Shown here: piece after piece, positions 3,238-21,041 of the stretch
How the letters are laid out: the number at the start of each line of letters is the position of its first letter
Position numbering within the stretch: position 1 is the stretch's first letter
Assembly (NCBI RefSeq): GCF_900095195.1
Contig: NZ_LT606950.1
Coordinates: 757,207 to 789,206, forward strand
Direction of reading: 5' to 3'
DNA length: 32,000 nucleotides
Origin: Polynucleobacter necessarius
Lineage (GTDB): Bacteria > Pseudomonadota > Gammaproteobacteria > Burkholderiales > Burkholderiaceae
Program-made: the position numbers and the translations under genes
The notes under the pieces: model-generated
Told to the model about the DNA's origin: nothing
Databases searched by the model: none
The model's input: the letters and a program-made list of their open reading frames with translations, nothing else

Positions 3238-3266
3238 TGCAGCTTAGTTCGCTTAGAAACTAAGAA

Positions 3267-3632
3267 TTAAGCTGCAGTGTTGACTACGGACTTGATCCGA
3301 GCAACCAAAGCAGCAAAGGCTGCTTTGTCAGCAATAGCCATATCGGAAAGTACTTTGCGGTCGAGATCGATCGCAGCTTTCTTCAAACCATTGATGAATA
3401 CGCTGTATGTCAAGTCATGCTCACGCACTGCCGCATTGATACGGGCAATCCACAAAGCGCGGAATACACGTTTCTTGTTGCGACGGTCACGATAGGCATA
3501 TTGACCAGCACGCATAACCGCTTGCTTAGCAATGCGGAATACGTTTTTACGACGGCCGTGGTAACCCGTTGCGGCATCGGTAATTTTCTTATGACGGGCT
3601 ATTGCTGTAACCCCACGTTTGACTCTTGGCAT
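3267..3632 (-). CDS. rplT: 50S ribosomal protein L20
   Basis: 121-aa ORF starting [17 protein letters not shown]...[24 protein letters not shown], a typical L20 sequence. Confidence 0.97.
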
Positions 3633-3657
3633 TGAATTCTCCTAATCTAGTCTGAGG

Positions 3658-3855
3658 TTAAGCGTAAGGAAGCATGGAGCGAATTGACTTAACATCAGAT
3701 TTCGCAACTTCGGTGGAACCACGCAAATGACGCTTGTTCTTCGTGTTCTTCTTGGTGAGGATGTGGCGTTTGAAAGCCTGACCTCGTTTGATGGTTCCGC
3801 CTGCGCGAACCGTGAAACGCTTTTTGGCGCTACTCTTGCTCTTCATCTTGGGCAT
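3658..3855 (-). CDS. rpmI: 50S ribosomal protein L35
   Basis: 65-aa [39 protein letters not shown], located between infC and rplT. Confidence 0.95.
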
Positions 3856-3989
3856 AAAGCACCCCTTCTTTTACTTGTGCAACATAGGTGGCAACCGACG
3901 GTTACTCTTCCTGTACCCAGAAACACTTCTCTACTGCCAGCATCTTTCAATGCCTCCCTACTTAAGAACTAGATTTTTTATAAACCTAG

Positions 3990-4514
3990 TTACTTAGCCT
4001 TGCGGACGGGGGCCAGTACCATCACCATTTGGCGACCCTCCATCTTTGGAAACTGTTCGACTTGACCATACTCTTGTAGGTCCACTTTCAAACGCTCCAA
4101 CATCCTTGCTCCGATTTCTTGGTGGGCCATTTCACGACCCCGAAACCGCAACGTAATTTTTGTCTTATCGCCATCCTCTAAAAAGCAGATTAGATTGCGT
4201 AGCTTCACACCATAATCACCATCGTCTGTACCAGGGCGGAATTTCACTTCCTTTACCTGAACCATTTTTTGCTTCAGCTTAGCTTCATGCTGACGCTTGG
4301 CTTCTTGGTATTTGAATTTGCCAAAGTCCACGATTCGGACTACAGGCGGTGCAGCGGTGGGAGCAATTTCAACCAGATCGGTATCTTTCTCTTCTGCTGC
4401 CGCTAAGGCTTCACTCAACTTAACTACACCGATGGCTTCACCATCGATTCCAATCAAACGCACTTCAGGAGCAGTAATTTCCCGATTAATGCGCTGCAAT
4501 CTTTCAGTAGCGAT
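3990..4514 (-). CDS. infC: Translation initiation factor IF-3, with a probable non-ATG (AUC/AUU) start
   Basis: The ORF reads ...[43 protein letters not shown]...[14 protein letters not shown]. The track start is an internal TTG at 4499. The frame stays open upstream to ...GGA ATT AAG AAG ATC GCT ACT GAA. ATC at 4514 gives [13 protein letters not shown] and has AAGGA about 9 nt upstream. ATT at 4523 is the alternative. Confidence 0.88.
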
Positions 4515-4556
4515 CTTCTTAATTCCTTTAAAAAAACAATAAAAACCGTTCTAACC

Positions 4557-6479
4557 CTAGCTAGGCTCGGGTCCGACTTTCTGGGATATATCCTGCTGGA
4601 GTCGGGCAACGAAGGCATCAATAGGCATTGCACCCAAATCCACTCCGCCACGGGCACGAACGGCCACCGAATTACTTTCTGATTCCTTATCCCCCACAAC
4701 GAGCAAAAATGGGATCTTCTGTAATGCGTGCTCGCGTATTTTATACGTAATTTTCTCGTTCCGCAAATCCGCCTCGACTCTAAACCCTTGTTTTTTCAGG
4801 ATTTGCTGGACTTGTTGTGCATATGTAGCAGAATTCCCGGAGATATTCAGGACAACTGCCTGGGTCGGAGCGAGCCAAACTGGCATGTTTCCAGCATGAT
4901 TTTCGATCAAAATCCCAATAAAACGCTCTAAAGAGCCCACAATGGCCCTATGGAGCATGACCGGGGTCTCGCGGCTATTGTCCTCAGCCACGTATTCAGC
5001 ACCCAAACGGGCAGGCATCGAAAAATCCACCTGGATGGTGCCGCACTGCCATGTACGACCAATAGAATCCTTGAGGTGGTATTCAATTTTAGGACCATAA
5101 AAAGCACCCTCACCTGGCAATTCTTCCCATTCTTGACCGGATGCTTTAAGGGCGCCTCGCAACGCTTCTTCAGCCTTATCCCAAATCGCATCGTCACCAA
5201 CACGTTTTGCGGGGCGCAACGCTAACTTCACCGCCACTTCAGTAAAATCAAAATCTTGGTAGACAGCGCGAACGGCTTTGTCGAAATCTGCCACTTCTGA
5301 CTGGATCTGGTCTTCGGTACAGAAAATGTGCCCATCGTCTTGTGTAAATCCGCGAACTCGCATCAGACCATGCAATGCCCCGGATGGTTCGTTGCGATGG
5401 CATTGACCAAACTCACCAAAGCGCAATGGCAACTCACGATAGCTATGCAATCCAGAGTTATAAATTTGTACATGTCCAGGACAGTTCATCGGCTTTAATG
5501 CATAAGCCCGATTCTCAGACTCCGTGGTGAACATGTTCTCTTTGTAGTTTTCCCAGTGACCAGATTTTTCCCAGAGTGCTCGGTCCAATATCTGTGGCAC
5601 TTTGACTTCTTGATAGCCTTCTTGTTGATAGACACGACGCATGTACTGCTCAACCTCTTGCCAGATCGACCAGCCTTTTGGATGCCAGAAGATTAAGCCT
5701 GGAGCCTCTTCTTGAAAATGAAATAAATCTAATTGCTTGCCTAAACGACGATGGTCACGTTTTTCAGACTCTTCAAGCATATGCAAGTACGCATCTTGAT
5801 CTTCTTTACGCAACCATGCTGTACCGTAAATACGTTGCAGCATCTCATTCTTGCTATCACCACGCCAATAGGCGCCAGCAAGCTTCATGAGCTTAAAAAC
5901 TTTGAGCTTTCCAGTAGAAGGAACGTGAGGTCCTCGGCATAAGTCGGTGAATTTACCTTCTGCATACAGTGAGACGTCCTCTCCCTGAGGAATGCTGGCA
6001 ATGATTTCTGCTTTGTAGTGCTCGCCTTGATCTTTGAAAAATTTCACAGCCTCATCGCGAGGCAAAACGCTGCGTACCACTGGCTCATCTTTTTTGGCCA
6101 GCTCAACCATCTTCTTCTCTAAAGCAACTAAGTCCTCTGGTGTGAATGGACGATGATACGAAAAGTCGTAGTAAAAACCATTCTCGACAACAGGGCCAAT
6201 GGTAACTTGGGCCTCTGGAAATAATTCCTTAACAGCATAGGCCAACAGGTGTGCCGTCGAGTGACGGACAATTTCGAGAGCCTCGGGACTTTTATCCGTA
6301 ATGATGGCAAGTTGACTGTCTTTATCGATGACAAAACTGGTATCGACCATCTTGCCATCCACAATGCCGCCAAGCGCAGCTTTAGCAAGACCACTGCCGA
6401 TGCTTTGAGCCACATCCGCAACCCGAACAGGGGCCTCAAACTCACGTTTTGATCCGTCGGGCAGAGTAACTGCTGGCAT
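4557..6479 (-). CDS. thrS: Threonine--tRNA ligase
   Basis: 640-aa ORF with a TGS N-terminus ([18 protein letters not shown]), an editing-domain motif (HSTAHLLA) and a class II core (...[10 protein letters not shown]..., ...[30 protein letters not shown]...). Confidence 0.97.
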
Positions 6480-6544
6480 AACGACTCCATCTGTTTAACT
6501 GAACTTACTAATATTCCGTGCACTGGTGCTACTTCACTTCAATA

Positions 6545-6584
6545 CCTAAAAATAAGGCGCGGTAGCTTGTGGGCATCCGCGCCT
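6545..6584 (-). terminator. Candidate Rho-independent terminator or attenuator between tRNA-Val and thrS
   Basis: On the - strand the sequence reads AGGCGCGG-(14 nt loop)-CCGCGCCT followed by TTATTTTTAGG. This is an 8-bp GC-rich stem (plus-strand 6555-6562 / 6577-6584) with a U-rich tail (plus-strand A-run 6547-6554). Confidence 0.5.
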
Positions 6585-6616
6585 CTTGAGTTTCCTCTTT
6601 TTGGGTCTTTATTCGT

Positions 6617-6693
6617 TGGTAGGCTCGATTGGACTCGAACCAACGACCCCCACCATGTCAAGGTGGTGCTCTAACCAGCTGAGCTACGAGCCT
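6617..6693 (-). tRNA. tRNA-Val (anticodon GAC)
   Basis: The reverse complement reads AGGCTCG TA GCTC AGCTGGTTA GAGC A CCACC TTGACAT GGTGG GGGTC GTTGG TTCGAGT CCAAT CGAGCCT ACCA. It folds as a full cloverleaf with anticodon loop CT-T-GAC-A-T, a T-loop GTTCGAGTC and an encoded CCA. Confidence 0.93.
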
Positions 6694-6711
6694 ATACGGC
6701 CCCGTAGTTTA

Positions 6712-6891
6712 TCACCGGCGACGCACTTGGGTGACGCCTTTCACCTCTTCTAGGCTATTTTGAACCACCCTCAAGACCTCCGCATCTTTAACCTCAATAG
6801 TTAGCAGGATCTGAGTCGGTCCACGCCGTTTGAATCACCCGTTCTGGGGCGCGCTCTAAAAGTCCTCGAAAAGTTTTGCATGAACGACGGT
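6712..6891 (-). pseudogene. relA: RelA (GTP pyrophosphokinase) C-terminal remnant, separated from its N-terminal part by the inversion
   Basis: The - strand reads ...[31 protein letters not shown]. After a frame change it reads ...LLTIEVKDAEVLRVVQNSLEEVKGVTQVRRR* with TGA at 6714-6712. These match the RelA region after the '...GVSIHR' motif and the extreme ACT-domain C-terminus. About 50 codons between them are missing. Confidence 0.8.
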
Positions 6892-7199
6892 CTGCACGCT
6901 CATCATCGAGCGGTATCCTGAATCCACTCTTTCAACTTCGCGAGCAATTAAGCCGTAAGAAACGTAATTTAAATTAGCGCCACCGTATTGCTCGGGGATG
7001 GTGATGCCTAAGAAGCCGAGCTCACCCATTTCACGAAAAATTGCAGGATCGGCTGTTTCATTGCGGTAGGCATCAAGTATTCAAGGCATCAGCCGGTTTT
7101 GGGCGTAATCTGCCGCAGCATCGCGCACCATACGTTCTTCTTCGGTTAATTGGGTATCTAACAAAGAGGGTCTTCCCAATGAAAGCTCGCTTTACTCAT
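6888..7199 (-). pseudogene. gcdH: Glutaryl-CoA dehydrogenase, N-terminal ~100 codons only, with an in-frame TGA
   Basis: The - strand from the ATG at 7199 reads [102 protein letters not shown]. Homology ends abruptly near 6891. The TGA at 7083-7081 sits where homologues have Arg. Confidence 0.87.
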
Positions 7200-7291
7200 G
7201 TCTCTATTCATCCTTAGGATTGTTTTGACCGCGCCTGCGTGAATTCAGGAATGCGGATATGCTTTTGCCTATTATTCATTTTTCTGGGCAT

Positions 7292-7997
7292 ATGAACTCC
7301 CCAAGACGTCACCATCGTTATTACGACCTCATTTTGGCAGCCTTTGTGGTGGTATTGCTGTGCTCAAACTTTATTGGGGCGGGGAAAGCCGCGGTCGTTA
7401 CCTTGCCGTATTTTGGGGAGTTAGTATTTGGCAGTGGCATCCTCTTTTCCCCATCGCATATTTTTTTGGAACATCCTGACCGAAGTTTATGGTTACGCCT
7501 AAGATCGTAGGGCAGTGTGGGCAAGATTTGCTGCCTTAGCGTTTGTTGTGCCATCATGGCGCAAATTGTGATTGCGCTACCGGTTGCGCCAGGGCTTATA
7601 TGGCAAATTATCAGCATGGCTTAGAAACCGTATTTGGAAACTCCTGGCGGATTGCATTGGCATCCATGTTTTCCTTTTGGTGCGGCAGTTTTGCGAATAG
7701 TTTTGTCTTGGCCAAAATGAAGATCTGGACTTCGGGTCGTTTCTTATGGATGCGCACCATTAGTTCTACAGCAATAGGTGAGTTGGTGGACTCTTCTTCT
7801 ATATGTTAGCGGTTTATGGATTATGGCCAACTGCTGAAATCATTCAAGTCGCATTTGCGCAATATGCCCTAAAGACTTCTTGGGAGGTTTTAGCTACGCC
7901 ACTCACGTACTGGATCGTCAATTACCTCAAGCGCAAAGAAAACGAGGATTACTACGATATTCACACCAATTTCACGCCATTTCGGGTCAAAGTCTAG
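7292..7997 (+). pseudogene. Queuosine-precursor transporter (VUT/YhhQ family, COG1738) pseudogene
   Basis: Three consecutive ORF pieces lie in different frames. They read MNSPRRHHRYYDLILAAFVVVLLCSNFIGAGK...FGSGILF; ...ILTEVYGYA*DRRAVWARFAALAF (TAA at 7500-7502); ...VFGNSWRIALASMFSFWCGSFANSFVLAKMKIWTSGRFLWMRTISSTAIGELVDS; and ...YALKTSWEVLATPLTYWIVNYLKRKENEDYYDIHTNFTPF. Together they cover one family-length protein. Confidence 0.75.
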
Positions 7998-8051
7998 GTC
8001 GATCCCTTTTTGGGAGTTTCTTCTCGTTAACCCGTTAAAATAGTGGTCTTT

Positions 8052-8075
8052 GCCCCATCGGTGGGGCGTCTGTTG
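8052..8075 (+). terminator. Weak hairpin downstream of the yhhQ-like pseudogene
   Basis: GCCCCA-TCGG-TGGGGC (8052-8067) is followed by GTCTGTTG. The stem is short and the T tract poor, so support is low. Confidence 0.3.
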
Positions 8076-8104
8076 AACTGATTTCAGAAGGCTAGAAAAT
8101 ATCC

Positions 8105-9712
8105 GTGCTGTCCGCATCTAATATCACCATGCAATTTCGGGCAAAACCCCTGTTCGAAAATATTTCCGTGAAGTTTGGAGGCGGTAACCGCTACGGCTTG
8201 ATTGGCGCGAACGGTTGCGGAAAATCCACCTTCATGAAAATCCTTGGCGGCGAGTTAGAGCCTTCCAGTGGCAATGTGAGTTTGGATCCCGGTATTCGTC
8301 TTGGTAAATTGCGTCAGGACCAATTTGCGTACGAAGATATTCGCGTGCTCGATGTTGTGATGATGGGTCATGAAGAGATGTGGAAAGCAGCGCAAGAGCG
8401 TGATGCGATCTATGCAAACCCGGATGCAACCGACGAAGACTATATGAAAGCCGCTGAGCTTGAAGGTAGGTATGCGGAGTACGGTGGCTATACCGCAGAA
8501 GCGAAAGCGGGTGAGTTGTTGTTGGGTATTGGGATTCCCATTGAGCAACATAATGGTCCGATGAGCAATGTTGCACCTGGCTGGAAATTGCGTGTATTGC
8601 TCGCGCAAGCGCTATTTTCAGATCCCGATGTCTTGCTACTCGATGAGCCAACCAACAACTTGGACATTCACTCGATTCATTGGTTAGAGGAAGTGCTGAA
8701 TCAATTCAACAGCACGATCGTCATCATTTCACACGACCGTCACTTCCTAAATGAAGTCTGTACGCATATGGCGGATATGGACCATGGAACTCTAAAGGTT
8801 TACCTAGGTAACTACGATTCATACATGCTGGCTTCGACACAGGCAAGAGCTCAGCAATTAGCATCGAATGCGAAAGCCAAAGAAAAAATTGCTGAATTGC
8901 AGGCTTTCGTTAGCCGCTTCTCCGCAAATGCATCTAAAGCACGCCAAGCAACATCGCGTCAACGCCAGTTGGAGAAAATCGAGATCGCTGAAATCAAGCC
9001 ATCTTCTCGTCAGAATCCTTTTATTCGCTTTGATTACGAGAAAAAATTACACAATATGGCGGTTGAGTGCAATGCGCTGACTAAGGCATACGACCGAACC
9101 ATCTTCAAGAACTTCAAGCTTGGCATTCGTGCCGGAGAAAAGATTGCGATCATCGGTCAAAACGGCGCAGGTAAAACCACCTTGTTGAAAACAATTTTGA
9201 GCAAGCGATTTGATGGTATTCCAGCTGATAGTGGTGATGTGAAGTGGGCTGAAAATGCCAATGTCGGTGTAATACCTCAAGACAACACGGAGATGTTTGC
9301 AAAAGACGAGACGCTCATGGAATGGATGAGTACTTGGCGTAATACTGGCGATGATGACCAAGTAGTTCGCGGCACCCTAGGACGTCTTTTATTCTCCGGT
9401 GATGAGGTTGGTAAGTCTGTGAAGGTGCTGTCTGGTGGTGAAAAAGGGCGCATGATCTGGGGTAAGTTGATGCTGCAAAAGCACAACGTCTTAGCCATGG
9501 ATGAGCCTACCAATCACATGGATATGGAATCAATTGAGAGCTTGCAAATTGCGCTTGAGAAATTTGAGGGGACACTAATCTTTGTATCCCATGACCGTGA
9601 ATTTGTATCGGCTTTAGCGAACCGCATCCTAGAGGTGAAGATGGATGGAACGGTTGAGGATTATTCCGGGACGTACGAAGAATATCTTCGCAGCCAAGAA
9701 TTGGCTGGCTAA
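8105..9712 (+). CDS. ybiT: ABC-F family ATPase (YbiT-like)
   Basis: 535-aa ORF with a GTG start and two ABC cassettes: GANGCGKST...[11 protein letters not shown] and GQNGAGKTT...LSGGEKGRM...[11 protein letters not shown]. It aligns end to end with E. coli YbiT as I recall it ([41 protein letters not shown]). It appears intact. Confidence 0.92.
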
Positions 9713-9981
9713 GGAGATTTATTTTCTTTAGCCTGACGCTGAAAGCGGGTCGCAGTACCTTCTGCACGGATCCGCTTCCAAACAAGGGCTTTCTCTTCAT
9801 CTGAGAAAAATACCCAATTACTGACTTCGCTCAGTGTGCGCCCACAACCCTGGCAAATCTCATCATAGAGAGTGGTGCAAACACCAATACAGGGTGAGTC
9901 CGATTCGTTATCGCCAGTAGAGAGCGAGTTCGAGCCATCAAGAGGTAAGTCGGGATTAATTTTGTTGCTAGCAGCAGTCAT
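9709..9981 (-). CDS. DUF1289 (YdhL-like Cys-rich) small protein
   Basis: 90-aa ORF containing [28 protein letters not shown], the family Cys motif. Its start overlaps the upstream stop as TAATG at 9979-9983. Confidence 0.72.
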
Positions 9982-11150
9982 TAGGATACTTTAGACGATT
10001 TCAGCGGACTATGCTCGCCAAGCTCATTCACATATGCACCAATACCTTGGTGTTCACTTTCCAAAAAGTGTCCGATTGCCTCAGCAAAGCGCGGGTCTTG
10101 TATCCAGTGGGCAGATTGAATGCTGGTAGGCAGAAACCCACGCGCCATTTTGTGTTCACCCTGCGCACCACCTTCAAATGTCTGAATGCCATGGGCGATG
10201 CAGTATTCAATGGCTTGATAGTAGGCTGTTTCAAAGTGCAAGCACGGCACGCGTTCAATCGCGCCCCAGTACCTACCATAGGCTCTTGAGGATGAGTGAT
10301 CCACCACTAATAGTGAGGAGGCAATTGGACTGCCATTACGCTTTGCAATGATGAGGTGTAAATGCTCTGGCATTCTTTGAACCCAGAGCTTAAAGAATGC
10401 GGGTGTTAAGTAGGGGCTTGAGTGATGCTCTTGATAAGTATTTTGATAACAGTTGTAGAAAAATTCCCAATCGCTTGCCGTTGACTTTGTGCCCGGTAGA
10501 ACTACTGAAATCACGGGGTTTTTTGTTACGTGACTCGGTTCAGTTTCATTGGCATAACCAAGGCTTTCAAAGCTTTGAGTATTTTTTATCCGCCCTGACT
10601 ATGAAACGTCGCAAGAATATTCGTCGCGAACGCAAACAAGTATTGCGTGAAGGCATTTCATTTCGTCAGGTACCTCATGCGATAGCGGAAATAGAGTGTG
10701 TGCAGACGAGAGATGATTCTCGGTCAGAAGGGTTTTTAAGGCCCCAATCATGATCTTAGATATCTCCGTCAGATCTACGCTTGGTGAGCATAAGAGGCGA
10801 GGTCCTTGAACAGGGGTAAATGGAATGGCGCAGAGTACTTTTGGATAGTAGTTCAGCCCATTTTGTTCATAAGCTTGCGCCCAGGACCAATCAAACACAA
10901 ACTCACCGTAGGAATGCTGCTTTAGATAGAGTGGCATCGCTGCAATGAGATGCCCATCACGTTTGATGGCGAGATGAGCAATTTGCCATCCTGTGGCATT
11001 ACCTACGCAACCTGTTTCTTCAAGAGCGCTTAAAAATTCATATCTTAAGAAAGGTCCTGCATGTTGAGGAAGTAGAGCATTCCAGTCTACTGCAGAGACA
11101 TCGGTAATGCGATCGAGGATAGCGAATTGATATGAATCGTTACGCGTCAC
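9981..11150 (-). pseudogene. COG3146/DUF482 GNAT-like acyltransferase-family gene disrupted by an internal 172-bp inversion
   Basis: The N-terminal part lies on the - strand from 11150 to ~10675 (MTRNDSYQFAILDR...WQIAHLAIKRDGHLIAAMPLYLKQHSYGEFVFDWSWAQAYE...LSSAHTLFPLSHEV). The central part lies on the + strand from ~10499 to 10670 (ELLKSRGFLLRDSVQFHWHNQGFQSFEYFLSALTMKRRKNIRRERKQVLREGISFRQV). The C-terminal part lies on the - strand from ~10496 to 9981 (PGTKSTASDWEFFYNCYQNTY...YGRYWG...LHFETAYYQAIEYCIAHGIQTFEGGAQGEHKMARGF). The GTG start overlaps the gloA stop as GTGA. Confidence 0.82.
10495..10674. other. In-place inversion within the COG3146 gene (172 bp flipped, bounded by GGTA / TACC)
   Basis: GGTA lies at 10495-10498 and the palindrome GGTACC at 10669-10674. 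Flipping 10499-10670 gives a continuous frame ...SHEVELLKSRGFLLRD...GISFRQVPGTKSTASDWEFFY... Confidence 0.85.
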
Positions 11151-11538
11151 GCTGAACGTTGAATCAGTTCAATTTTGTAACCATCCGGATCGGTGACAAA
11201 TGCAATGATGATGTCGCCACCAGCAACGGGGCCAGCCTCACGAGTGACATTGCCACCCGCTGCTTTGATCTTGTCGCAGGCTACATAGGCATCTGGAACG
11301 CCTATAGCGATATGGCCATAGGTATTTCCGAGATCATAGGCATGAACCCGTAGTTGTAGGTCAATTCCAGTTCAGCCTGACCATCCGCGTTGCCGTTGCC
11401 GTATCCCAAAAAAGCCAATGCATATTTTTGTTCAGAACGTTCAGTGGTACGCAAAAGGTTCATGCCTAAGACCTGAGTATAAAAATCTATTGACCGCTGC
11501 AGGTCGCCAACACGCAGCATGGTGTGCAATAACATCAT
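11147..11538 (-). pseudogene. gloA: Lactoylglutathione lyase (glyoxalase I) with a single 1-nt frameshift
   Basis: [47 protein letters not shown]...ELELTYNYG is followed by a frame change at the C-run 11347-11349. It continues as [66 protein letters not shown]. Confidence 0.85.
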
Positions 11539-11541
11539 GCT

Positions 11542-13212
11542 TTACATTGCTCCATAGTTAGGCCCACCACCACCTTCGGGAGTGACCCAGACGATGTTTT
11601 GACTGGGGTCTTTGATGTCACACGTTTTACAATGTACGCAATTCTGCGAATTAATTTGCAAGCGCGGTTGACCATCCGCTTCGATATATTCATATACACC
11701 GGCAGGACAGTATCGCTGTTCTGGGCCTGCATATGTTTTTAGGTTGAGGCTAACTGGAATGGCCGCATCCTTCAAGGTCAGGTGAATCGGTTGATTCTCA
11801 GCATGGTTCGTGTTGGAGATAAAGACCGAGGAGAGGCGGTCGAAACTAATCTTGCCATCGGGTTTGGGATAGTCGATTAGCTGATGATGCGCAGCTGGTT
11901 CTAAACACTCATGATCAGCATGTTTTAGATGCACCGTCCAAGGTACATTGCCACCCATGACTTTTTGCTCCAAGCCAACCATGAGGGTGCCCAAATACAG
12001 CCCTTTGGACATCCATGCTTTGAAGTTGCGTGCCTGATTGAGTTCAGTATGCAACCAACTATGTTGAAAGGCGGCTGGGTAACCCGCTAGAACATCTGCA
12101 GAGCGGTTGTCGTTAATGGCTGCAACAGCGGCTTCTGCCGCCAGCATTCCCGTCTTAATCGCCGCATGACTACCCTTGATGCGAGACGCATTCAAATAGC
12201 CGGCATCACACCCTGTCAACGCACCGCCTGGGAATACGGTTTTAGGGAGACTATTTAATCCACCTGCTGTTAATGCACGAGCGCCGTAGGCGATGCGCTT
12301 ACCGCCCTCAAAGGTCTCCCGAATTTTTGGGTGCAATTTATAACGCTGAAATTCTTCAAAAGGAGAAAGGTAGGGGTTCTTGTACGAAAGACCAACGACC
12401 AATCCCACGGCAACCTTGTTATCACCGAGGTGATACAAGAAAGAGCCTCCATAGGTATCGCTTTCTAGGGGCCAGCCAGCGGTATGCACCACTAAGCCAG
12501 GTTTGCTCTTGGAGGGTTCTACCTCCCAAAGTTCTTTAATGCCAATGCCGTAGCTTTGAGGATCTGAATCTTTGTCTAGGTCAAATTTTGCGATTAATTG
12601 TTTGCCAAGGTGCCCGCGCGCGCCTTCGGCAAAGAGGGTGTATTTGCCGCGCAATTCCAGGCCGAGCTGAAATTGATCGGTAGGGTTACCTTCTTTGTCT
12701 AAATCCATTGATCCAGTGATTACTCCACAAACAGCGCCATTGGCATCGTATAAAACATCTGCAGCTGAGAAGCCTGGAAAAATTTCAACCCCGAGTGCTT
12801 CCGCTTGCTCACCGAGCCAACGCGTCACGTTTGCTAAGCTAGCAATATAGTTCCCCTCATTTTTAAAGCAGTGTGGCAACATCCAATTTGGCACTTGATA
12901 CGAATTGTCTGAAGTCAAAAATAAAAATTGATCTTGAGTGACTTCAGTATGCAGAGGGGCCCCCAATTCTTTCCAGTTGGGAAATAATTCGGTTAGCGCC
13001 ATTGGGTCCATCACAGCGCCAGACAAAATATGCGCGCCAATCTCCGAACCTTTTTCTAACACGCAAACGCTAATTTCCTTGCCAGATTCATGGGCAAGCT
13101 GCTTTGCTTTGATCGCAGCCGATAGGCCAGCAGGGCCGCCTCCAACAATGACCAGGTCGTAATCTATCGATTCCCTAGGCCCAAATTGTTCTACTAACTG
13201 CGCTTGGTTCAT
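11542..13212 (-). CDS. Electron-transfer flavoprotein:ubiquinone oxidoreductase (ETF-QO)
   Basis: 556-aa ORF with an FAD-binding N-terminus (DLVIVGGGPAGLSAAIKA) and a C-terminal 4Fe-4S region (...RYCPAGVYEY...NCVHCKTCDIKDP...WVTPEGGGGPNY). It appears intact. Confidence 0.92.
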   Translation of the reverse strand: MNQAQLVEQFGPRESIDYDLVIVGGGPAGLSAAIKAKQLAHESGKEISVCVLEKGSEIGAHILSGAVMDPMALTELFPNWKELGAPLHTEVTQDQFLFLTSDNSYQVPNWMLPHCFKNEGNYIASLANVTRWLGEQAEALGVEIFPGFSAADVLYDANGAVCGVITGSMDLDKEGNPTDQFQLGLELRGKYTLFAEGARGHLGKQLIAKFDLDKDSDPQSYGIGIKELWEVEPSKSKPGLVVHTAGWPLESDTYGGSFLYHLGDNKVAVGLVVGLSYKNPYLSPFEEFQRYKLHPKIRETFEGGKRIAYGARALTAGGLNSLPKTVFPGGALTGCDAGYLNASRIKGSHAAIKTGMLAAEAAVAAINDNRSADVLAGYPAAFQHSWLHTELNQARNFKAWMSKGLYLGTLMVGLEQKVMGGNVPWTVHLKHADHECLEPAAHHQLIDYPKPDGKISFDRLSSVFISNTNHAENQPIHLTLKDAAIPVSLNLKTYAGPEQRYCPAGVYEYIEADGQPRLQINSQNCVHCKTCDIKDPSQNIVWVTPEGGGGPNYGAM

Positions 13213-13371
13213 GCCGTTTCTCCGAAATTTCTAAAAAATGGGGTATTTCTGCCTAGATAGTTTAGTTCCAGCCGCCAAAAACCCATTTGGTGCTCGGACT
13301 ACCTGGCCCAAAGGGTCCGAAGCATTATGATTGCTTTTTTACCCTTTTTGGCAATATTTAGGACAAAAGTT

Positions 13372-14085
13372 ATGAATAAAACCTACCCATCGGCAGTAGA
13401 TGCCCTGCGGGATATCTTAAAAGATGGACAAAAACTGGCAGTTGGCGGTTTTGGTCTGTGCGGTATTCAGGGGCGAGCCCAGAGGCTCTCATTGCAGCGG
13501 TAAAGGAGCTTGGCGTACAAAATCTCACTGCGATTGCAAACAATGCTGGTGTGGATGGTTTTGGCTTAGGTTTGTTGTTGAATTCCCGCCAAGTTAAAAA
13601 AATGGTGGCCCCATACGTAGGTGAAAACAAAGAGTTTGAGCGTCAATACCTCGCTGGCGAATTGGAGTTGGAATTTACGCCCCAAGGTGCTTTGGCGGAG
13701 AAGTGTTAAGTGAGCCTGTGGTGGCGGCATTCCAGCCTTTTATACAAAAACAGGTGTAGGTACGCTGGTTGCTGAAGGTAAAGAGGAAAAAGAATTTGAT
13801 GGTGAGAAATATATCCTGGAGCGCTCTATCGTTTCTGATATTTCTCTAGTAAAGGCATGGAAAGCTGATAAGTCCGGGAACTTGGTGTATTGCTATACGG
13901 CGCGCAACTTCAACCAATTCGTCGCCATGGCTGGCAAGATCACCGTGGCTGAAGTCGAGGAGATTGTTGAGAATGGTCAATTGCATCCTGATGAAATCCA
14001 CACGCCAGGAATTTATGTACACCGTTTGGTGATTAACAAGACTCCAGAGAAGCGCATTGAACAGCGTACTCTCTCAGCAGCTTAA
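13372..14085 (+). pseudogene. scoA: Succinyl-CoA:3-ketoacid CoA-transferase subunit A pseudogene
   Basis: [32 protein letters not shown] is followed by an ~11-nt insertion (13468-13478). The gene continues as [75 protein letters not shown]. More frame breaks lie at ~13700-13880, then ...YTARNFNQFVAMAGKITVAEVEEIVENGQLHPDEIHTPGIYVHRLV. Confidence 0.85.
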
Positions 14086-14112
14086 TGATTGAAAAGAATT
14101 AGGAAGAACGAA

Positions 14113-14762
14113 ATGCCTTGGAATAGAGATGAGATGGCAGCACGTGCTGCTAAAGAATTAAAAGACGGTTATTACGTCAATTTGGATATTGGTATGCCAA
14201 CCTTGGTGGCGAATCATGTGCCCAAAGATATGGAAGTCTGGTTGCAGTCTGAAAACGGTTTGCTTGGTATTGGCCGTTTCCAACGGAAGCTACGATCGAT
14301 GCTGATTTGATCAATGCTGGTAAGCAAACAGTGACCACCTTACCTGGCTCTTCGATTTTTTCATCGGCAGATTCTTTCGGCATGATTCGTGGTGGAAAAA
14401 TCAACATCGCGATTTTGGGTGCGATGCAAGTAAGCGAGCACGGTGACTTGGCGAACTGGATGATTCCAGGCAAGATGGTTAAGGGTATGGGCGGCGCCAT
14501 GGATTTGGTTGCGGGTGTCAAGCACGTCGTCGTATTGATGGAGCACGTTGCTAAGAAGAAAGATGGCGCGGAAGAGTTGAAGATTCTTCCTAAGTGCACC
14601 TTGCCCCTAACTGGCGTCAAGGTCATTAGCAAGATCATTACGGATTTGTGTGTTCTGGACATTACGCCCAAGGGTCTCAAACTCATCGAGCTGGCTCCTG
14701 GTGTTACCAAGGAAGAAGTAATCGCCAAAACAGACGCCCCTGTAGACACTGCGGGTTTCTAA
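14113..14762 (+). pseudogene. scoB: Succinyl-CoA:3-ketoacid CoA-transferase subunit B with one frameshift
   Basis: [37 protein letters not shown]...[11 protein letters not shown] is followed by a frame break at the CC run 14274-14275 (expected GGC CCG TTT CCA). It continues as [69 protein letters not shown]... Confidence 0.85.
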
Positions 14763-14797
14763 CCCGCGTCACCATTTAATGGAATAATGGGTTCACG

Positions 14798-15901
14798 ATG
14801 TCGGGCCCCCATCATTTCCATTTCAAGCCATTTAAGTCTCAGTCTCCTGTGGGCTCGGATCCATCTTTGCATGCCCACAAGAAAGGGGATGCGCGACACT
14901 CTCATAGCAAACAAGTTGCCAATCAAAACCTTTTATTGATTGCAATGGTATTGACTCTCGGCTTTTCTGGAGTTGAGGGCGCCGCTGCTTATTTTGCCAA
15001 TTCTTTGGCATTGATTTCTGATGCGGGTCATATGGTCACGGATGCTGCAGCATTAGGATTGGCATTATTAGCGCAAATTATTTCCCGTCGTCCGCCATCA
15101 GCAAAACATTCATTTGGATTTGGTAGGGCAGAAGCCTTGGCGGCATTTGTCAACAGTATTGTGATGTTGGGTTTGGTAGTCTGGACTGTGGTGGAGGCTA
15201 TCAGTCGTTTTTATGACCCTCACAAAGTTGATGGCTTAACCGTTACTGTTGTTGCCGGTATTGGCTTGCTGATGAATGTTATTGTTGCTTGGGTGCTCTC
15301 ACGCGACAAGAAGGGTGTGAGCACGCGGGCTGCTTTGGTGCATGAGATAGGCGATTTACTCGGATCCGTTGCCGCACTAGTTGCGGGTGTTGTGATTCAG
15401 GTAACGGGCTGGATGCCGATTGACGCGATTCTCTCCATCTTGGTTTCCCTGTTGATCCTGAAATCCACCGTTTCTATCCTGCATGAGTCTTATCACTTCC
15501 TGATGGAGGGTGTCCCGCTGCACATTGACTATTTGCAAGTTGGCAAGGATTTAAGAAATGTTCCTGGCGTCTTAGCGGTTCATGATCTGCATGTGTGGGA
15601 GATGACGCCGAGCTTTCCGGCGTTGATTGGCCATATTGAAATTGCGGACATCATGGAGTGGCCTGCCATCATGGCGCGAATCAATGACATGCTTTTGGAC
15701 AAACATGGAATTGATCATGTAACCTTGCAGCCAGAGGAGGTTGGTGAGATTGCCGATGATGAAATACCAGATTCAGCCGTTTTCCATGACGACGATACCT
15801 TTTATGTTCAATGTTCAAGCGGTGAGGCGGGACACCGTATGCATACCACGCTTGGGGTAATCCCAAGAACCCTAAAGTATTGGTCTGCGTACATGGTCTA
15901 A
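14798..15901 (+). CDS. Cation diffusion facilitator (CzcD/ZitB-like) metal efflux protein
   Basis: 367-aa ORF with a His-rich N-terminus, a TM2 motif SDAGHMVTDAAAL, a TM5 motif VHEIGDLLGS and a C-terminal domain ...VHDLHVWEM...HVTLQPEE. The last ~45 codons lack family similarity and overlap the start of the next (decayed) gene. Confidence 0.8.
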   Translation: MSGPHHFHFKPFKSQSPVGSDPSLHAHKKGDARHSHSKQVANQNLLLIAMVLTLGFSGVEGAAAYFANSLALISDAGHMVTDAAALGLALLAQIISRRPPSAKHSFGFGRAEALAAFVNSIVMLGLVVWTVVEAISRFYDPHKVDGLTVTVVAGIGLLMNVIVAWVLSRDKKGVSTRAALVHEIGDLLGSVAALVAGVVIQVTGWMPIDAILSILVSLLILKSTVSILHESYHFLMEGVPLHIDYLQVGKDLRNVPGVLAVHDLHVWEMTPSFPALIGHIEIADIMEWPAIMARINDMLLDKHGIDHVTLQPEEVGEIADDEIPDSAVFHDDDTFYVQCSSGEAGHRMHTTLGVIPRTLKYWSAYMV

Positions 15902-16640
15902 CAAGACGTGGAAGTGATTTCAAGACATTGGCGCTAGCCATGTGCAATGACTATTACGTTGTTTGCCGTGATGTAGTTGGTTGTGGAGATTCGGATCGTT
16001 TAAGTAATCCCATGCAATACGCTGTTCCGCAATACGTAGCGGATATGACCGACCTCGTTAAACATCTCGGTGTCGATCAGGTGGATTGGTTTGGTACTTC
16101 CATGGGTGGATTGATCGGCATGGTCTATGCAGCAATGCCTAACTCACCAATTCGCCGTATGCTCATTAATGATGTTGGTCCTCGGATTGAGCCTGACGCG
16201 ATCAAGCGTTTGGGCTCGTATGTTGGTCAACCATTTCTTTCGCCAATCGCACCGATGCACTTAATCGTTTAAATCAAATTTGTGCGACATTTGGTGAGCA
16301 CACGCTAGCAGAATGGGAGATATATAACGGACCGATGTTGGTGCAACGTGATGGCATGTGGATCATGCACTATGACCCAAACATCTCGGTGCCATTTGCC
16401 TCAGTCAATCCCATCATGGCCAAGGCAGGTGAGATGGCGATGTGGCATGCGTTTAAGCAAATCCATATCCCCATGTTAATAGTCCGTGGCGGAGATTCGG
16501 ATCTCTTATCCGCCGCAACTGTTGCCGAGATGTGCAAAGTGAATCCTTATGCCCGCAGTATTGAGATTCATCACGTGGGTCATGCGCCAGCTTTTATCAA
16601 AGCAGAGCAAATTGCTTTAGCGAAGGAATTTTTTAGTTAA
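15756..16640 (+). pseudogene. Alpha/beta-fold hydrolase pseudogene
   Basis: The pieces lie in three frames. They read MMKYQIQPFSMTTIPFMFNVQ...; ...YAYHAWGNPKNPKVLVCVHGLTRRGSDFKTLA...VDWFGTSMGGLIGMVYAA (GxSxG nucleophile elbow); then, after a shift near 16235, ...ISFANRTDALNRLNQICATFGEHTLAEWE...MLIVRGGDSDLLS...HHVGHAPAF. Confidence 0.72.
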
Positions 16641-16663
16641 CCATTTGGTTTAATCTTTGCCTA

Positions 16664-17407
16664 TGGCAAATGTACCTACCAATCCAGAAAAACCATCTGT
16701 CTTCCAAGATGCTTGGTATGGTGAGCCTTCTCAGTCCCATGCTCTGGGCGCTGCCCAAATACTCGAGACCTTAAATCTAGATAGGAGGCTTTAGTAAAGC
16801 TAATTGGCGATGAGGCTACTAAGCTGTTCATTGGTTACCGAGGTTTACGACAGGCGCAAGCCAAATTAGTCCGCGAAGATAGCGGCTTAAGTATCTCCGG
16901 TCAAGAGGAGATGTTGCGCAAGATGCTTTTAGCATTTGGTGATGATTTGCGTGTGGTTCTCATTTATTTAGCATCGCGTTTATAAACGTTGCGCTGGGTG
17001 ACTCAAGAAAAGATAGAGATGCCATCAGCATGGGCGCAGGAGATTCTGAATATCGATGCTTCATTGGCAAACCGGTTGGGTATTTGGCAGATGAAGTGGG
17101 AGATGGAGGATTTGGCTTTCCGCGTACTGTCACCCGTTGTCTATCGTGATATTGCCAATATGCTCGATGATGAAGAGGCTTGGCAGATTGCCAAACACGT
17201 TGAGACTAAACCGGATGTCTCAGAAGTAAAAGCTACTTCACCCGAAATTGTTCTGCGACATAGTAGTTGTAAATCAGGGCAAGGGGGTGATGTCTTGGTG
17301 GTTGGCGTTGATTCATTGTTGATGCAACTAGCCCGCTGCTGCAGACCAGTGCCACCGGATGCTATTGCGGGATTTGTGACACGCGGCAAAAGTGTCTCGA
17401 TACACCG
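16664..17407 (+). pseudogene. relA: RelA N-terminal and central remnants, heavily deleted and truncated by the inversion
   Basis: MANVPTNPEKPSVFQDAWYG...ILETLNLD is followed by stops and frame changes. Later pieces read ...LIGDEATKLFIGYRGLRQ...EEMLRKMLLAFGDDLRVVLIYLASRL* and ...ANRLGIWQMKWEMEDLAFRVLSPVVYRDIANMLDDEE. The sequence then jumps to ...[37 protein letters not shown]. The (p)ppGpp-synthetase catalytic block that should lie between is absent. Confidence 0.85.
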
Positions 17408-18273
17408 CTTTAGTCATGGTGCCGATTAATGAATTTGGCAGCGAAGCGCAAAAGCAAAAATATCTTCCAAGTCTCGCTACTGGGGAGTGGATTGGTTGCT
17501 TTGGTTTAACTGAACCAAACTACGGCTCCGATGCTGGCGGCATGATTACCCGCGCCAAGAAAGTTCCAGGTGGATTTTCATTAACGGGCTCAAAGATGTG
17601 GATATCCAACGCACCGATTGCGGATGTATTTGTCGTTTTGGCCAAGAATGATGAAGGCGTCATCCGAGGGTATATTTTGGAAAAAGGCATGAAGGGTTTA
17701 AGCGCTCCGAAGATTGGCGGCAAGATGGGTCTGCGCGTTTCCATTACTGGCGAAATCGTGATGGACGATGTATTTGTGCCAGCAGAAAATGAATTCCCGG
17801 AAATTATTGGTTTAAAAGGTCCTTTTACCCGCTTAAATTCCGCTCGCCATGGAATCTCTTGGGGGAATTTAGGTGCAGCTGAATGGTGTTGGCATGCTGC
17901 CCGTCAATACACGCTGGATCGCAAACAATTTGGCAAACCCTTGGCGGCTAATCAACTGATTCAAAAGAAATTAGCGGACATGCAAACGGAAATCGCGCTC
18001 GCCTTACAAGGCTGCTTGCGTTTAGGCCGCATGAAAGATGAAGAGATTGCCGCTCCTGAAATCACCTCCATCATGAAACGCAACTCCTGTGGCAAATCCC
18101 TTGATATTGCTCGCATGGCACGCGATATGCATGGCGGCAACGGTATTTCAGATGAGTATGGCGTGGTACGTCATATGATGAATCTCGAGGTCGTCAACAC
18201 CTATGAGGGCACACATGATATTCATGCGCTCATCTTGGGTCGCGCACAAACAGGTATTCAAGCTTTTAGTTAA
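17404..18273 (+). pseudogene. gcdH: Glutaryl-CoA dehydrogenase, C-terminal ~290 codons, detached from the N-terminus by the inversion
   Basis: ...(T)[52 protein letters not shown]...[15 protein letters not shown]...[16 protein letters not shown]...[44 protein letters not shown]. It continues exactly where the 7199-6892 fragment stops. Confidence 0.9.
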
Positions 18274-19342
18274 GCTTTAGCTGATTGACGATGGTCTTCG
18301 CTGCATTTGCAAAGGCCTCGTCACTGTCGTTTTCCAATTGCACGAAATGATCAATGCGGTACTGGGGAAAATTTCGCACAATCGACGATTGATATGATGG
18401 GTCGTAGTGCTTTATCAACAACTCCTCCACCAACTCGGGGAACTGTCCTGCATCGATCGTTTCATACCACTTGGCAATTTGCACCTTTCCATAATGGGCT
18501 GTGAGTAATGCCAACTTATTTTTAAATTGAGCTGTATCACTCAAAAAATGGTGATACTCATGAAGCAACCAGGACACTCGCGCACTGGCACTCGAACGCA
18601 ATTCAATACACGCTCCATTGCGGATCTTTTCCATTAATGCGTCGGGAATATGAACACCACCAACCTTCTTACTCTCTGATTCCACTAGTACTGGCTTAGT
18701 CGGATCGAGTTTTCGCAAGGCATTCCATAGGGCTGTCTCAAAACCCTTTTGAGTTGGCTGCTCGATGTTCGGCTCGTTACCCAATACCGATCCCCGATGA
18801 ATGGCTAACGCTTCTAGGTCCAGTATTTGGGCGCCATAATTTTTTGCCTCTTGTAAAACCCGCGTCTTTCCGCTACCCGTCATGCCGCAAATCACTTGAA
18901 AGTTAAACTTTTTAGCCGCATCTTCAAGGTCGTCGATAACGGTACGTCGAAAGCCTTGGTAACCACCTTCCAATTGCATCGCTTTCCAGCCAATGCGATT
19001 GAGAATGTGCGTGAGTGCTCCGCTACGTTCTCCACCGCGCCAGCAATAAATTAAAGGACGCCATTCACGCGGCATCTCCAGAAGATGGTTTTCGAGGTGA
19101 TTTGCAATATTACGAGATACCAAAGCTGCGCCCAGTTTCTTTGCAGCAAATAGTGAGACTTGTTTGTATAAGGTTCCGACTTGAGCACGCTCGTCGTTAT
19201 TGAGGACCGGAAAATTGACGGCACCCGGAATATGATCCAAGGCAAATTCTGCGGGAGAACGCACATCAATCACGAGATCAAAGTGATCTAACGCGGATGA
19301 AAATTGATCTCGCTTGAGAATATGGGGATTGCTAGGTTGCAT
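18266..19342 (-). CDS. selU: tRNA 2-selenouridine / geranyl-2-thiouridine synthase
   Basis: 358-aa ORF with a rhodanese domain carrying the active-site motif YCWRGGERS and a P-loop [10 protein letters not shown]. It has family length and no lesions. It overlaps the gcdH 3' end convergently by 8 bp. Confidence 0.88.
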
Positions 19343-19351
19343 GACGCAGCG

Positions 19352-19751
19352 TTAGCGAATCTTTTGCAAAATATCTTCAGGCCATGGTGCTGATTTTCTG
19401 GTAGCAAGGTCGGCCCACACCATCGTCGCACCGCCTAAGGCCATTTCCTCATTAGGAGCAGTAGTGAGGGCCATGCTCGTACGACCAAACGCCAATCGAG
19501 GTCTTCAATATCAGGTCACCTGGATAGCTCACTTGCTTATAGAAATTACAGAAGCCATTCATCATCACCATGGTGTTTTGACCAAGAGCCACTTGGTAAC
19601 CCAATGATGTAATCCAATCAACACGGGCTTGCTCCATAAACCGAAAGTACACTGTGTTGTTCAAACGCTCATACGCATCCATATCCCCCCAACGAATGGG
19701 AGCGACCATTTCATGAACGAGTTTGCGTTCAGCAGGAATATCGATGCGCAT
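19352..19751 (-). pseudogene. YbgC/4HBT-type acyl-CoA thioesterase with one frameshift
   Basis: MRIDIPAERKLVHEMVAPIRWGDMDAYERLNNTVYFRFMEQARVDWI...NGFCNFYKQVSYPGDLILKTSIGV is followed by a frame break at the A-run 19487-19489. It continues as GRTSMALTTAPNEEMALGGATMVWADLATRKSAPWPEDILQKIR*. Confidence 0.7.
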
Positions 19752-19759
19752 TAAAAAAT

Positions 19760-20104
19760 TTAACCAATTTGCAAAGCAAAATTGTATAAATTGGTAGACC
19801 GAGCACCAGAACGACAAAAGGCCAAGATTGGGCCTGGTAACTCTTTTAGCAAACGAGCCATCTCTTGAACTTGCTGTGGCGTAAATGCGCCTGGAACTAC
19901 AGGCAAATACACATAATGAAGCCCTAATTTTTCCGCCTCTGCTTGGATTGATGCGTTACTAGGCTGATCTGGGCCACCCTCTCCATCAGGACGGTTATTG
20001 ATCACGCTTTTGTAGCCAAGCTGGGCAATTTCGGCGACGTGATCAGGAGCAATTTGTCCAAGAGTGGCAAACGAATCCGTATGGCGTGTAATTGGAGGGG
20101 GCAT
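19760..20104 (-). CDS. TIGR01244/DUF442 family protein (Blh N-terminal-like sulfurtransferase/phosphatase fold)
   Basis: 114-aa ORF reading ...GQIAPDHVAEIAQLGYKSVINNRPDGE...PGAFTPQQV...ILAFCRSGARS. It has the Cys-loop motif typical of the family. Confidence 0.72.
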   Translation of the reverse strand: MPPPITRHTDSFATLGQIAPDHVAEIAQLGYKSVINNRPDGEGGPDQPSNASIQAEAEKLGLHYVYLPVVPGAFTPQQVQEMARLLKELPGPILAFCRSGARSTNLYNFALQIG

Positions 20105-20144
20105 TTCAACCTCGAAAATTAAATTGGTATAGCTTCATTCTAAA

Positions 20145-20591
20145 TCAGGACTTTTTGTGGGCACTGAAGAAGCGGTCGCAAATTTCCATCCCCGCTAACA
20201 TCGCTACTAAGAAAATAAGCGCCTTAGGGTGTCCAGCACCTAGAGCAACAATAGCGGGGCCAGGGCAAAATCCAGCGATACCCCAGCCTGCGCCAAAGAT
20301 CAGACTTCCAATAACTAAAGGCTTGGTAATATCTCTCCGATTTGGAATATGTAATGCACCACCAAAAAAAGCCTCGGTTCTCTTGCTGACCACATAAAAA
20401 CCGCCAAGCCCAACAATAATAGCCCCGAGCATAACAAACATAAGGGATGGATCCCATGCGCCAGCCAAATCTAAAAATCCTAAAATTTTCTGCGGATTGG
20501 TCATACCTGAAATGATCAGACCCCAACCAAACAGTACACCAATCAAATACTGACTAAATAAACCAAAGTGCCGTCTCACATCAGCCCCCAA
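20145..20591 (-). CDS. Half-size YeeE/YedE-family (DUF395/DUF6691) membrane protein
   Basis: 148-aa ORF reading ...LIGVLFGWGLIISGMTNPQKILGFLDLAGAWDPSLMFVMLGAIIV...GSLIFGAGWGIAGFCPGPAIVALG. The start is ambiguous: TTG at 20591, or GTG at 20579 just after the upstream stop. Confidence 0.75.
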   Translation of the reverse strand: MGADVRRHFGLFSQYLIGVLFGWGLIISGMTNPQKILGFLDLAGAWDPSLMFVMLGAIIVGLGGFYVVSKRTEAFFGGALHIPNRRDITKPLVIGSLIFGAGWGIAGFCPGPAIVALGAGHPKALIFLVAMLAGMEICDRFFSAHKKS

Positions 20592-21017
20592 TCAAGTGAC
20601 GAAAAACATACACCGTCAGAAAACCGGTACTCATAAAGGCTAATGTCGCCACCAAAGATCGAGGCGAAAGACGCGATAGTCCGCAAATTCCATGACCACC
20701 AGTACAACCCGAGCCATACTGAGCACAAAACCCTACTAATAGTCCAGCAACCATAATGGCAAATTCATCCACCTGCACGTCGATAACCGGGCGGACACCA
20801 AAGAAGAGTGCTGCGAGTATTGGAGCACTCAAAAGTCCACCGATTAGGGCAATTCTCCAGGCACGATCATCAGCCTTGTGGCGGAGCAATCCAGAAACAA
20901 TTCCACTGATACCTAAAATAAGGCCATGCAACAGCACGTAAAGTGCAGCAGCTACGCCAAGAATCATGCCACCCAGAAGGGATGAATGGGTGTAAATGAA
21001 ATCTAATCGATCTGCAT
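20581..21017 (-). pseudogene. Half-size YeeE/YedE-family protein with a damaged 5' end
   Basis: The ATG at 21017 gives MQID*ISFTP (TAG at 21005-21003, where homologues as I recall them have Trp). After a 1-nt frame change it reads HSSLLGGMILGVAAALYVLLHGLILGISGI...YGSGCTGGHGICGLSRLSPRS. Only an N-terminally shortened ORF (20581-20967) remains open. Confidence 0.68.
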
Positions 21018-21041
21018 GAATATTTCTCTTCTAAATAAGGA

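Follow-up and report, generated by a model that had tools for sequence, protein, structure and literature searches.

The region of the Polynucleobacter necessarius genome analyzed here (32,000 nt of contig NZ_LT606950.1, assembly GCF_900095195.1; hereafter, the window) carries an inverted block of about 10.5 kb, one end of which lies inside the stringent-response gene relA and the other inside gcdH, an acyl-CoA dehydrogenase gene. Comparison with related genomes indicates a real inversion that is derived, very young and confined to the window lineage; by alignment its breakpoints can be placed to the exact base, and there was no net gain or loss. The best explanation, which we favor with moderate confidence from the junction sequences, would be a lone, length-neutral reciprocal break-and-rejoin event, read as a 4 bp staggered cut-and-swap between the two genes.

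Gene order and polarity of the inversion

In Polynucleobacter, symbionts and free-living relatives are very close, which makes it a model for how genome reduction begins. The window was compared with three free-living genomes, L001, L084 and L088 (CP061303.1, strain MG-6-Vaara-E2), with a fourth (L003) used for the relA side only, and with a sister symbiont strain represented by three contigs from three samples, L081 (ENA ERZ27248707), L082 (SRR32119647) and L083 (SRR8208349). The sister contigs were reached via a cluster-mate, P0241 (ETF-ubiquinone oxidoreductase, ETF-QO, 99% identical); they match the window at ~98% identity, and pseudogenes are just as abundant in them. The abundance of pseudogenes in the window fits an obligate endosymbiont of the ciliate Euplotes, and the window-type arrangement is known from one assembly of this strain.

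Alignment to L088 by blastn gave a forward flank (window 2191-6813, L088 43-4631), a reversed interior (window 6889-17408, L088 16378-4872) and a right flank that is again forward (window 17410-21872, L088 16382-20917). L084 and L001 gave the same picture of one inverted block with the same endpoints and collinear flanks, in agreement with an initial annotation of the window, which had proposed a ~10.5 kb inversion with its ends inside relA and gcdH. The full gene order in L088, L084 and L001 is thrS(-), relA(-, 672 aa), a CDF-abhydrolase gene(-, 623 aa), CoA-transferase B and A(-), ETF-QO(+), glyoxalase(+), FemAB(+), DUF1289(+), ABC-F(-), Vut_1(-), gcdH(+, 392 aa) and mnmH/selU(-). The ancestral order on the relA side is also present in L003, and the succession thrS, tRNA-Val, relA is common to L003, L084 and L088 (Table 1).

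Both breakpoints are spanned by intact RelA (672 aa) and GcdH (392 aa) in the free-living relatives, and in the window each gene is split into halves with contiguous coordinates. When the intact L088 proteins were used as tblastn queries, RelA matched with residues 1-40, 57-184 and 475-561 at 16663-17414 (+) and with residues 559-584 and 635-672 at 6889-6715 (-), and GcdH with residues 11-103 at 7170-6892 (-) and 104-392 at 17408-18270 (+). Translation and tblastn thus reproduced the four fragments of the initial annotation; the frames it gave were offset by 1 nt in places. Because both breakpoints lie within genes that are whole in the relatives, the derived state is that of the window. The opposite polarity, with the window order ancestral and that of the free-living and sister genomes derived, found no supporting point, conflicts with the genes being full length in relatives and split in the window and with a GC skew whose uniformity in the relatives is broken in the window, and is regarded as refuted, its probability being negligible.

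The GC skew is +0.072 within the block and -0.109 and -0.069 in the flanks, i.e., its sign is reversed, a result that a misassembled flip would also give. The homologous interior in L088, L084 and L001 has a negative skew like that of its own flanks. In all three sister assemblies relA is contiguous across the breakpoint; L081 and L082 have ...GATACACCGTTGTTCATGC..., and flipping the window block in silico gives ...GATACACCGTCGTTCATGC..., one substitution away from the sister sequence. As the sister relA is contiguous at this point, the inversion is younger than the split between the window and sister lineages, which differ by ~0.3-0.6% per branch in coding DNA and by ~1.2% in pseudogenes.

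Lineage-specific inversions in symbionts that have recently become host-restricted and are full of pseudogenes are usually ascribed to recombination between copies of insertion sequences (IS), rRNA operons or other long repeats. The ends of the present block carry neither long inverted repeats nor IS, as would be found after homologous inversion mediated by such elements: no inverted repeat of at least 12 nt with arms at 6888 and 17407 was detected at the block ends, and a Pfam domain search found no transposase or recombinase domains in the window. Both searches bear out the initial annotation, which had seen no IS, long inverted repeat or recombinase gene at either end. Inversions can evidently arise in a genome region without mobile elements or repeats.

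Sequence of the two junctions

The breaks fall at about codon 559/560 of relA and within codons 104-105 of gcdH. An in-silico flip of the block restores both genes in frame at the junctions, as had been claimed: the reconstructed gcdH, when aligned with 120 homologues, has no junction gap and no change in length relative to the free-living genes, and the reconstructed relA shows no gap at the junction in alignment to L081. The tetranucleotides reported at the two ends, CGGT on the left and ACCG on the right, can be read directly in the sequence (Table 1).

The two parental sites can be recovered to different degrees, the relA site from the sister strain and the gcdH site by comparison with conserved relatives, which makes this a recent rearrangement that can be followed to the base. 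The ACCG is native to relA, where L081 and L082 have CAC CGT (His-Arg). At the gcdH site, free-living genomes have CAG TCC TCC TTA, CAG TCC TCA TTA or CAA TCT TCT CTG, and the corresponding protein motif, SVQ-SS-LVM, is found in 120/120 of the closest GcdH proteins. More distant genes were collected by scanning metagenomes with the terminal 21-mer of the gcdH 5' fragment, which gave 120 matches with no more than 73% identity upstream; among these genes sharing the 21-mer, Ser-Ser is encoded by 116/120 and Thr-Ala by 0/120. The flipped window has CAG ACC GCT TTA, i.e., Thr-Ala, and gcdH-derived sequence resumes exactly on either side of the tetramer (...CAG and CTTTAG...).

On the simplest reading of these alignments, the 4 bp of relA would be present at both junctions and the TCCT of gcdH would be lost. 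The parental 4-mers probably shared only their central CC. The initial annotation had placed the exchange at a 4 bp inverted microhomology, but ACCG is ancestral in relA only, and gcdH of the relatives has TCN TCN; judged from these relatives, the same short sequence was probably not present at both parental sites, and the identity of ACCG at the gcdH partner appears to have resulted from the event rather than to have been a precondition for it. A simple exchange at a 2 bp (CC) microhomology was also considered and rejected, as it predicts CAGTCCGTCG and TACACCTCTT, unlike the observed junctions.

Mechanism of the inversion

In the favored staggered cut-and-swap, the relA and gcdH sites would both be cut with a 4 bp stagger and then cross-joined. 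Each junction would begin as a 4 bp heteroduplex of ACCG and TCCT in which only the central CC is paired, and replication would segregate the strands to give one daughter with the 4 bp of relA at both junctions. A strand-level simulation, in which both sites received a 4 bp 5'-staggered cut and the duplex between them was flipped, ligated and replicated once, was started from CAG TCCT CTTTAG and TAC ACCG TCG, and reproduced both observed junctions base for base. The first simulated daughter, GCATGAACGA-CGGT-CTGCACGCT ... TCTCGATAC-ACCG-CTTTAGTCATGG, equals the window at both junctions, and the second has AGGA and TCCT. The footprint of such a cut, in which the 4 bp of one partner occupy both junctions with no net gain or loss, is the one found in the window.

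A 4-base stagger is a hallmark of type IIA topoisomerases. The swap could have its source in the exchange of subunits, or of the subunit interface, between two cleavage complexes of gyrase or topoisomerase IV, and this mechanism is put forward here as a hypothesis for the 10.5 kb inversion. Exchange of gyrase subunits or interfaces has been reviewed, with biochemical support, as a homology-independent route of illegitimate recombination (PMC11164529).

A second, much smaller inversion is nested within the block, in the FemAB_like pseudogene (Table 1). It spans 180 bp and is likewise length-neutral (310 bp in the window versus 310 bp in L088), the expected GGCC has been lost, and flipping it back restores an open FemAB reading frame. 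Its junctions repeat the pattern of the large inversion and are compatible with the same 4 bp swap footprint. In the sister contigs L081-L083 the same FemAB segment is deleted, with endpoints within 7 bp of those of the nested inversion, and their gcdH is broken ~40 bp from the breakpoint in the window. These two coincidences suggest local fragility, and the nested inversion together with the sister strain's own inversion suggests a region prone to rearrangement. A broader reading, in which subunit exchange by a type IIA topoisomerase would have left natural footprints at both the 10.5 kb and the 180 bp inversion of an IS-free endosymbiont, and in which strong hot spots of cleavage would promote rearrangements and the loss of genes early in genome reduction, is tentative and on present sequence comparisons rather doubtful; its hot-spot component is drawn from the independent hits in the sister strain at the gcdH 5' region and in the same FemAB segment.

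Several points weigh against the staggered swap. By eye, and with no statistics, ACCG is unlike GRYC, the classical core of gyrase cleavage sites in E. coli. The stretch swapped in the nested inversion may be only 2 bp. The parental gcdH allele of this lineage is deleted in the sister strain, and an ancestral ACC GCT is possible. Finally, exact look-ups of the ORFs (open reading frames) that span the junctions found no second assembly with a window-type junction.

The main rival is end joining, in which two independent double-strand breaks would have been repaired with the 4-nt overhang at relA filled in at both ends and gcdH trimmed by 4 nt, without any concerted topoisomerase exchange. It yields the same final sequence as the swap and needs no homology, but it requires that the two breaks were processed in opposite ways, with +4 and -4 canceling exactly, and the same length neutrality is seen again in the nested inversion; we consider it unlikely.

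Third in rank, and less probable still, is a pre-existing microhomology, where both parental sites already had ACCG/CGGT and illegitimate recombination took place within this 4 bp inverted match. The presence of ACCG/CGGT at both junctions and the seamless flip are what it predicts, and the gcdH of this lineage is unusual in having substitutions at 15/285 columns that are invariant among the 120 close homologues (the 15 include S104T and S105A themselves, five N-terminal positions displaced by a frameshift, and the nonsense codon at position 40), so Thr-Ala could predate the event. Such a history would, however, need non-synonymous changes in both codons of a Ser-Ser pair (TCC to ACC, TCT to GCT), a pair that is invariant in the close homologues and nearly so in the distant ones, and these changes would have to be located exactly at the breakpoint and match the relA bases exactly. 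A rough estimate puts its likelihood at ~0.003, compared with ~0.2 for the swap. From the junction sequences, then, the staggered swap would rank first, followed by fill-in and trim end joining, and then by pre-existing microhomology.

It is very improbable that the flip was introduced during assembly and is absent from the cell. With one assembly of the strain and no second record of the junction ORFs, and with a skew reversal that is equally expected of a misassembled flip, an artifact would be consistent with part of the data, but the block ends carry no repeat that could mislead an assembler, the replacement of TCCT by ACCG in gcdH goes beyond a simple flip and cannot be created by an assembler, and the sister strains carry a real inversion in the same region.

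Relation to known types of inversion

The event is a new case of a known class, the lineage-specific inversions of degenerating symbiont genomes, with a junction that is unusually clean and suggestive of a mechanism. It resembles the inversions of other recently host-restricted, pseudogene-rich symbionts in its derived state, in breakpoints that lie in dispensable genes, in the local reversal of skew and in the ongoing formation of pseudogenes around it, and differs from them in having no repeat longer than 4 bp at its ends and no mobile element. With gyrase subunit or interface exchange in the Ikeda model, which PMC11164529 discusses, it shares the reciprocal, conservative joining of unrelated sites without homology, a 4 bp unit equal to the type IIA stagger, and a heteroduplex whose segregation reproduces both junctions. 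That model comes from in-vitro, phage and plasmid assays, mostly with quinolones, whereas here the exchange is deduced only from a footprint in a natural genome.

Microhomology-mediated illegitimate recombination also leaves very short identical sequences at both novel junctions, but in the present case only the two central base pairs were probably shared beforehand. Site-specific invertases, whether serine (Hin/Gin) or tyrosine (Xer/integrase) recombinases, likewise produce precise, reciprocal and length-neutral inversions. They require an identical core of 2 bp (serine) or 6-8 bp (tyrosine), unlike the mismatched 4 bp overlap seen here, where the crossover 4-mers differ at 2/4 positions, and the window has no recombinase gene, recognizable paired sites, enhancer or long inverted repeats. 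A 4 bp swap signature of this kind could help to tell topoisomerase-type exchange and microhomology-mediated repair apart in natural genomes. Being one event in genes that are dispensable, the inversion has a small biological consequence, and its value is mechanistic and comparative.

Decay of relA and gcdH

The RelA ortholog of L088 scored 522.6 bits on PRK10872 (GTP diphosphokinase) and 388 on the SpoT model, both below the equivalog cut-offs. Pfam gives the domain order HD_4, RelA_SpoT, TGS and ACT in the L084 and L088 orthologs, and the window fragments align to the latter. Judged from this comparison, the split gene adjoining thrS and tRNA-Val is of the RelA type. The gcdH product has three acyl-CoA dehydrogenase domains (N, M and C), and its orthologs are named glutaryl-CoA dehydrogenase by JGI/UniRef; no NCBIfam equivalog cut-off was reached.

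Both genes carry lesions besides the inversion. The relA 5' remnant has a 46-bp deletion, a deletion of ~870 bp and a TAA stop, the 3' remnant has lost ~168 bp internally, from the ACT domain, and RelA residues 41-56, 185-474 and 585-634 are absent from the remnants. The ~870-bp deletion (residues 185-474, at about 17160-17175 of the window) apparently joins two copies of a short direct repeat (..TCGATG / ..TGGATG|ATGAAGAGG), and would be a genuine deletion of the microhomology type, unlike the inversion junctions. The relA of L081 has a different large deletion with other endpoints. In gcdH, the 5' fragment has a 1-bp deletion at ~7164 (near codon 12) and a CGN-to-TGA change at codon 40 (7083-7081), and the 3' fragment is free of stops and frameshifts and retains ~95% protein identity to free-living GcdH.

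Three chimeric ORFs have been created across the junctions. One of 57 aa (6856-7029, -) runs from gcdH codons into out-of-frame relA, another of 146 aa (16989-17429, +) extends the relA remnant across the right junction, and the third, of 293 aa (17392-18273, +), begins at a GTG within the relA remnant and stays in frame over the entire gcdH 3' fragment. None of the three is on record in other assemblies; exact look-ups covered the 57-aa and 293-aa ORFs, and those of two further window proteins, ETF-QO and P0121, likewise gave no second assembly.

The sister contigs L081-L083 have lost the 5' part of gcdH. In the 3' region, L081 and L083 have a 25-bp deletion (equivalent to window 17860-17900) and L082 has a TGG-to-TGA change instead. 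The sister clade is, on these sequences, made up of at least two haplotypes, and the decay of gcdH is seen to be still independent among the closest strains.

Each gene has several lesions, of which the inversion is one and not demonstrably the first. The initial annotation had suggested that the inversion inactivated two genes at once, but both genes carry extra lesions and the sister strain has lost both relA and gcdH by different lesions, without the window inversion; the claim is unproven. In the alignment of relA, the window and L081 share no indel or other lesion, each having a set of its own. Since all the relA lesions differ between the two, relA was probably full length at the time of their split and decayed independently in both. 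For gcdH, the window and L081 share the radical substitutions A215V, C246R, Y252H and G317E. These were considered as proof that gcdH was dead before the inversion, a conclusion rejected after a control with ETF-QO, an intact gene in which invariant columns have changed at a comparable rate, 6/358 against 6/~210 (an estimate) in the 3' part of gcdH. Too few branch-specific substitutions were counted for the inactivation to be timed. From the lesions in the two strains, relA and gcdH are clearly dispensable in these symbionts, and the sister strains are losing both in parallel through different lesions.

Other genes and rearrangements of the region

The features of the inverted block and its immediate surroundings are listed in Table 1. 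The Vut_1, glyoxalase, CoA-transferase A/B and CDF-abhydrolase genes, each of which is a single intact gene in L084 and L088, are all degraded in the window. The glyoxalase pseudogene is at 11153-11540. The CDF and abhydrolase parts form a single 623-aa fusion gene in the free-living relatives, and the abhydrolase remnants in the window are at 15902-16640.

Table 1. Coordinates of the inverted block, its junctions and the genes in and around it.
Feature	Position	Strand	Basis and remarks
tRNA-Val(GAC)	6617-6693	-	ARAGORN; ancestral downstream neighbor of relA
relA 3' remnant	6712-6887	-	RelA residues ~560-584 and 635-672, ends at stop; tblastn, alignment with L081/L001
Inverted block	6888-17407		10,520 bp; blastn against L001, L084 and L088, and GC skew
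Left junction tetranucleotide CGGT	6888-6891		ACCG on gene strand; contiguous with relA sequence on left
gcdH 5' fragment	6892-7199	-	Codons 1-103
Vut_1-family transporter pseudogene	7259-7997	+	Short ORFs; 236 aa in L088; synteny with L088/L084
ABC-F ATPase gene	8105-9712	+	Intact, now flipped; Pfam, synteny
DUF1289 gene	9709-9981	-	Intact, 90 aa; ORF list, L081/L088 gene tables
FemAB_like pseudogene	9981-11150	-	Two ORFs; Pfam, alignments
Nested small inversion in FemAB_like pseudogene	10495-10674		172 bp plus GGTA (10495-10498) and TACC (10671-10674)
ETF-ubiquinone oxidoreductase gene	11542-13212	-	Intact; 100% identical to WP_114662462.1 (Polynucleobacter necessarius)
CoA-transferase A/B pseudogene remnants	13300-14750		Synteny with L084/L088; ORF 14177-14749 without Pfam match
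CDF cation-efflux gene and broken abhydrolase-domain remnants	14798-16640	+	CDF open at 14798-15901, remnants follow; Pfam, L084/L088 tables
relA 5' remnant	16663-17403	+	RelA residues 1-40, 57-184 and 475-559; tblastn, alignment with L081/L001
Right junction tetranucleotide ACCG	17404-17407		Contiguous with relA on left; in place of the TCCT expected in gcdH
gcdH 3' fragment	17408-18273	+	Codons 105-392 plus stop
mnmH/selU-type rhodanese gene	18266-19342	-	Ancestral right-hand neighbor of gcdH; Pfam, NCBIfam on L088 ortholog

The sister strains have an inversion of their own in this region, of ~6.6 kb (window 7513-14142), accompanied by the loss of ~0.8 kb that includes the 5' part of gcdH. 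Its breakpoints in L081, at 9160-9178 and 15419 (the same in L082 and L083), correspond to window positions 7513, 14142-14267 and ~17447; one of its junctions has a 1-nt overlap and the other 10-20 nt of filler that could not be assigned. Derivation of the sister arrangement from that of the window, or the reverse, was rejected because it would take two or more additional inversions that reuse breakpoints exactly, and the favored view is that the two inversions are independent events. Outside the stretch compared with L088, a pyridoxal-phosphate enzyme of Cys/Met metabolism is split into two ORFs, at window 25133-26294.

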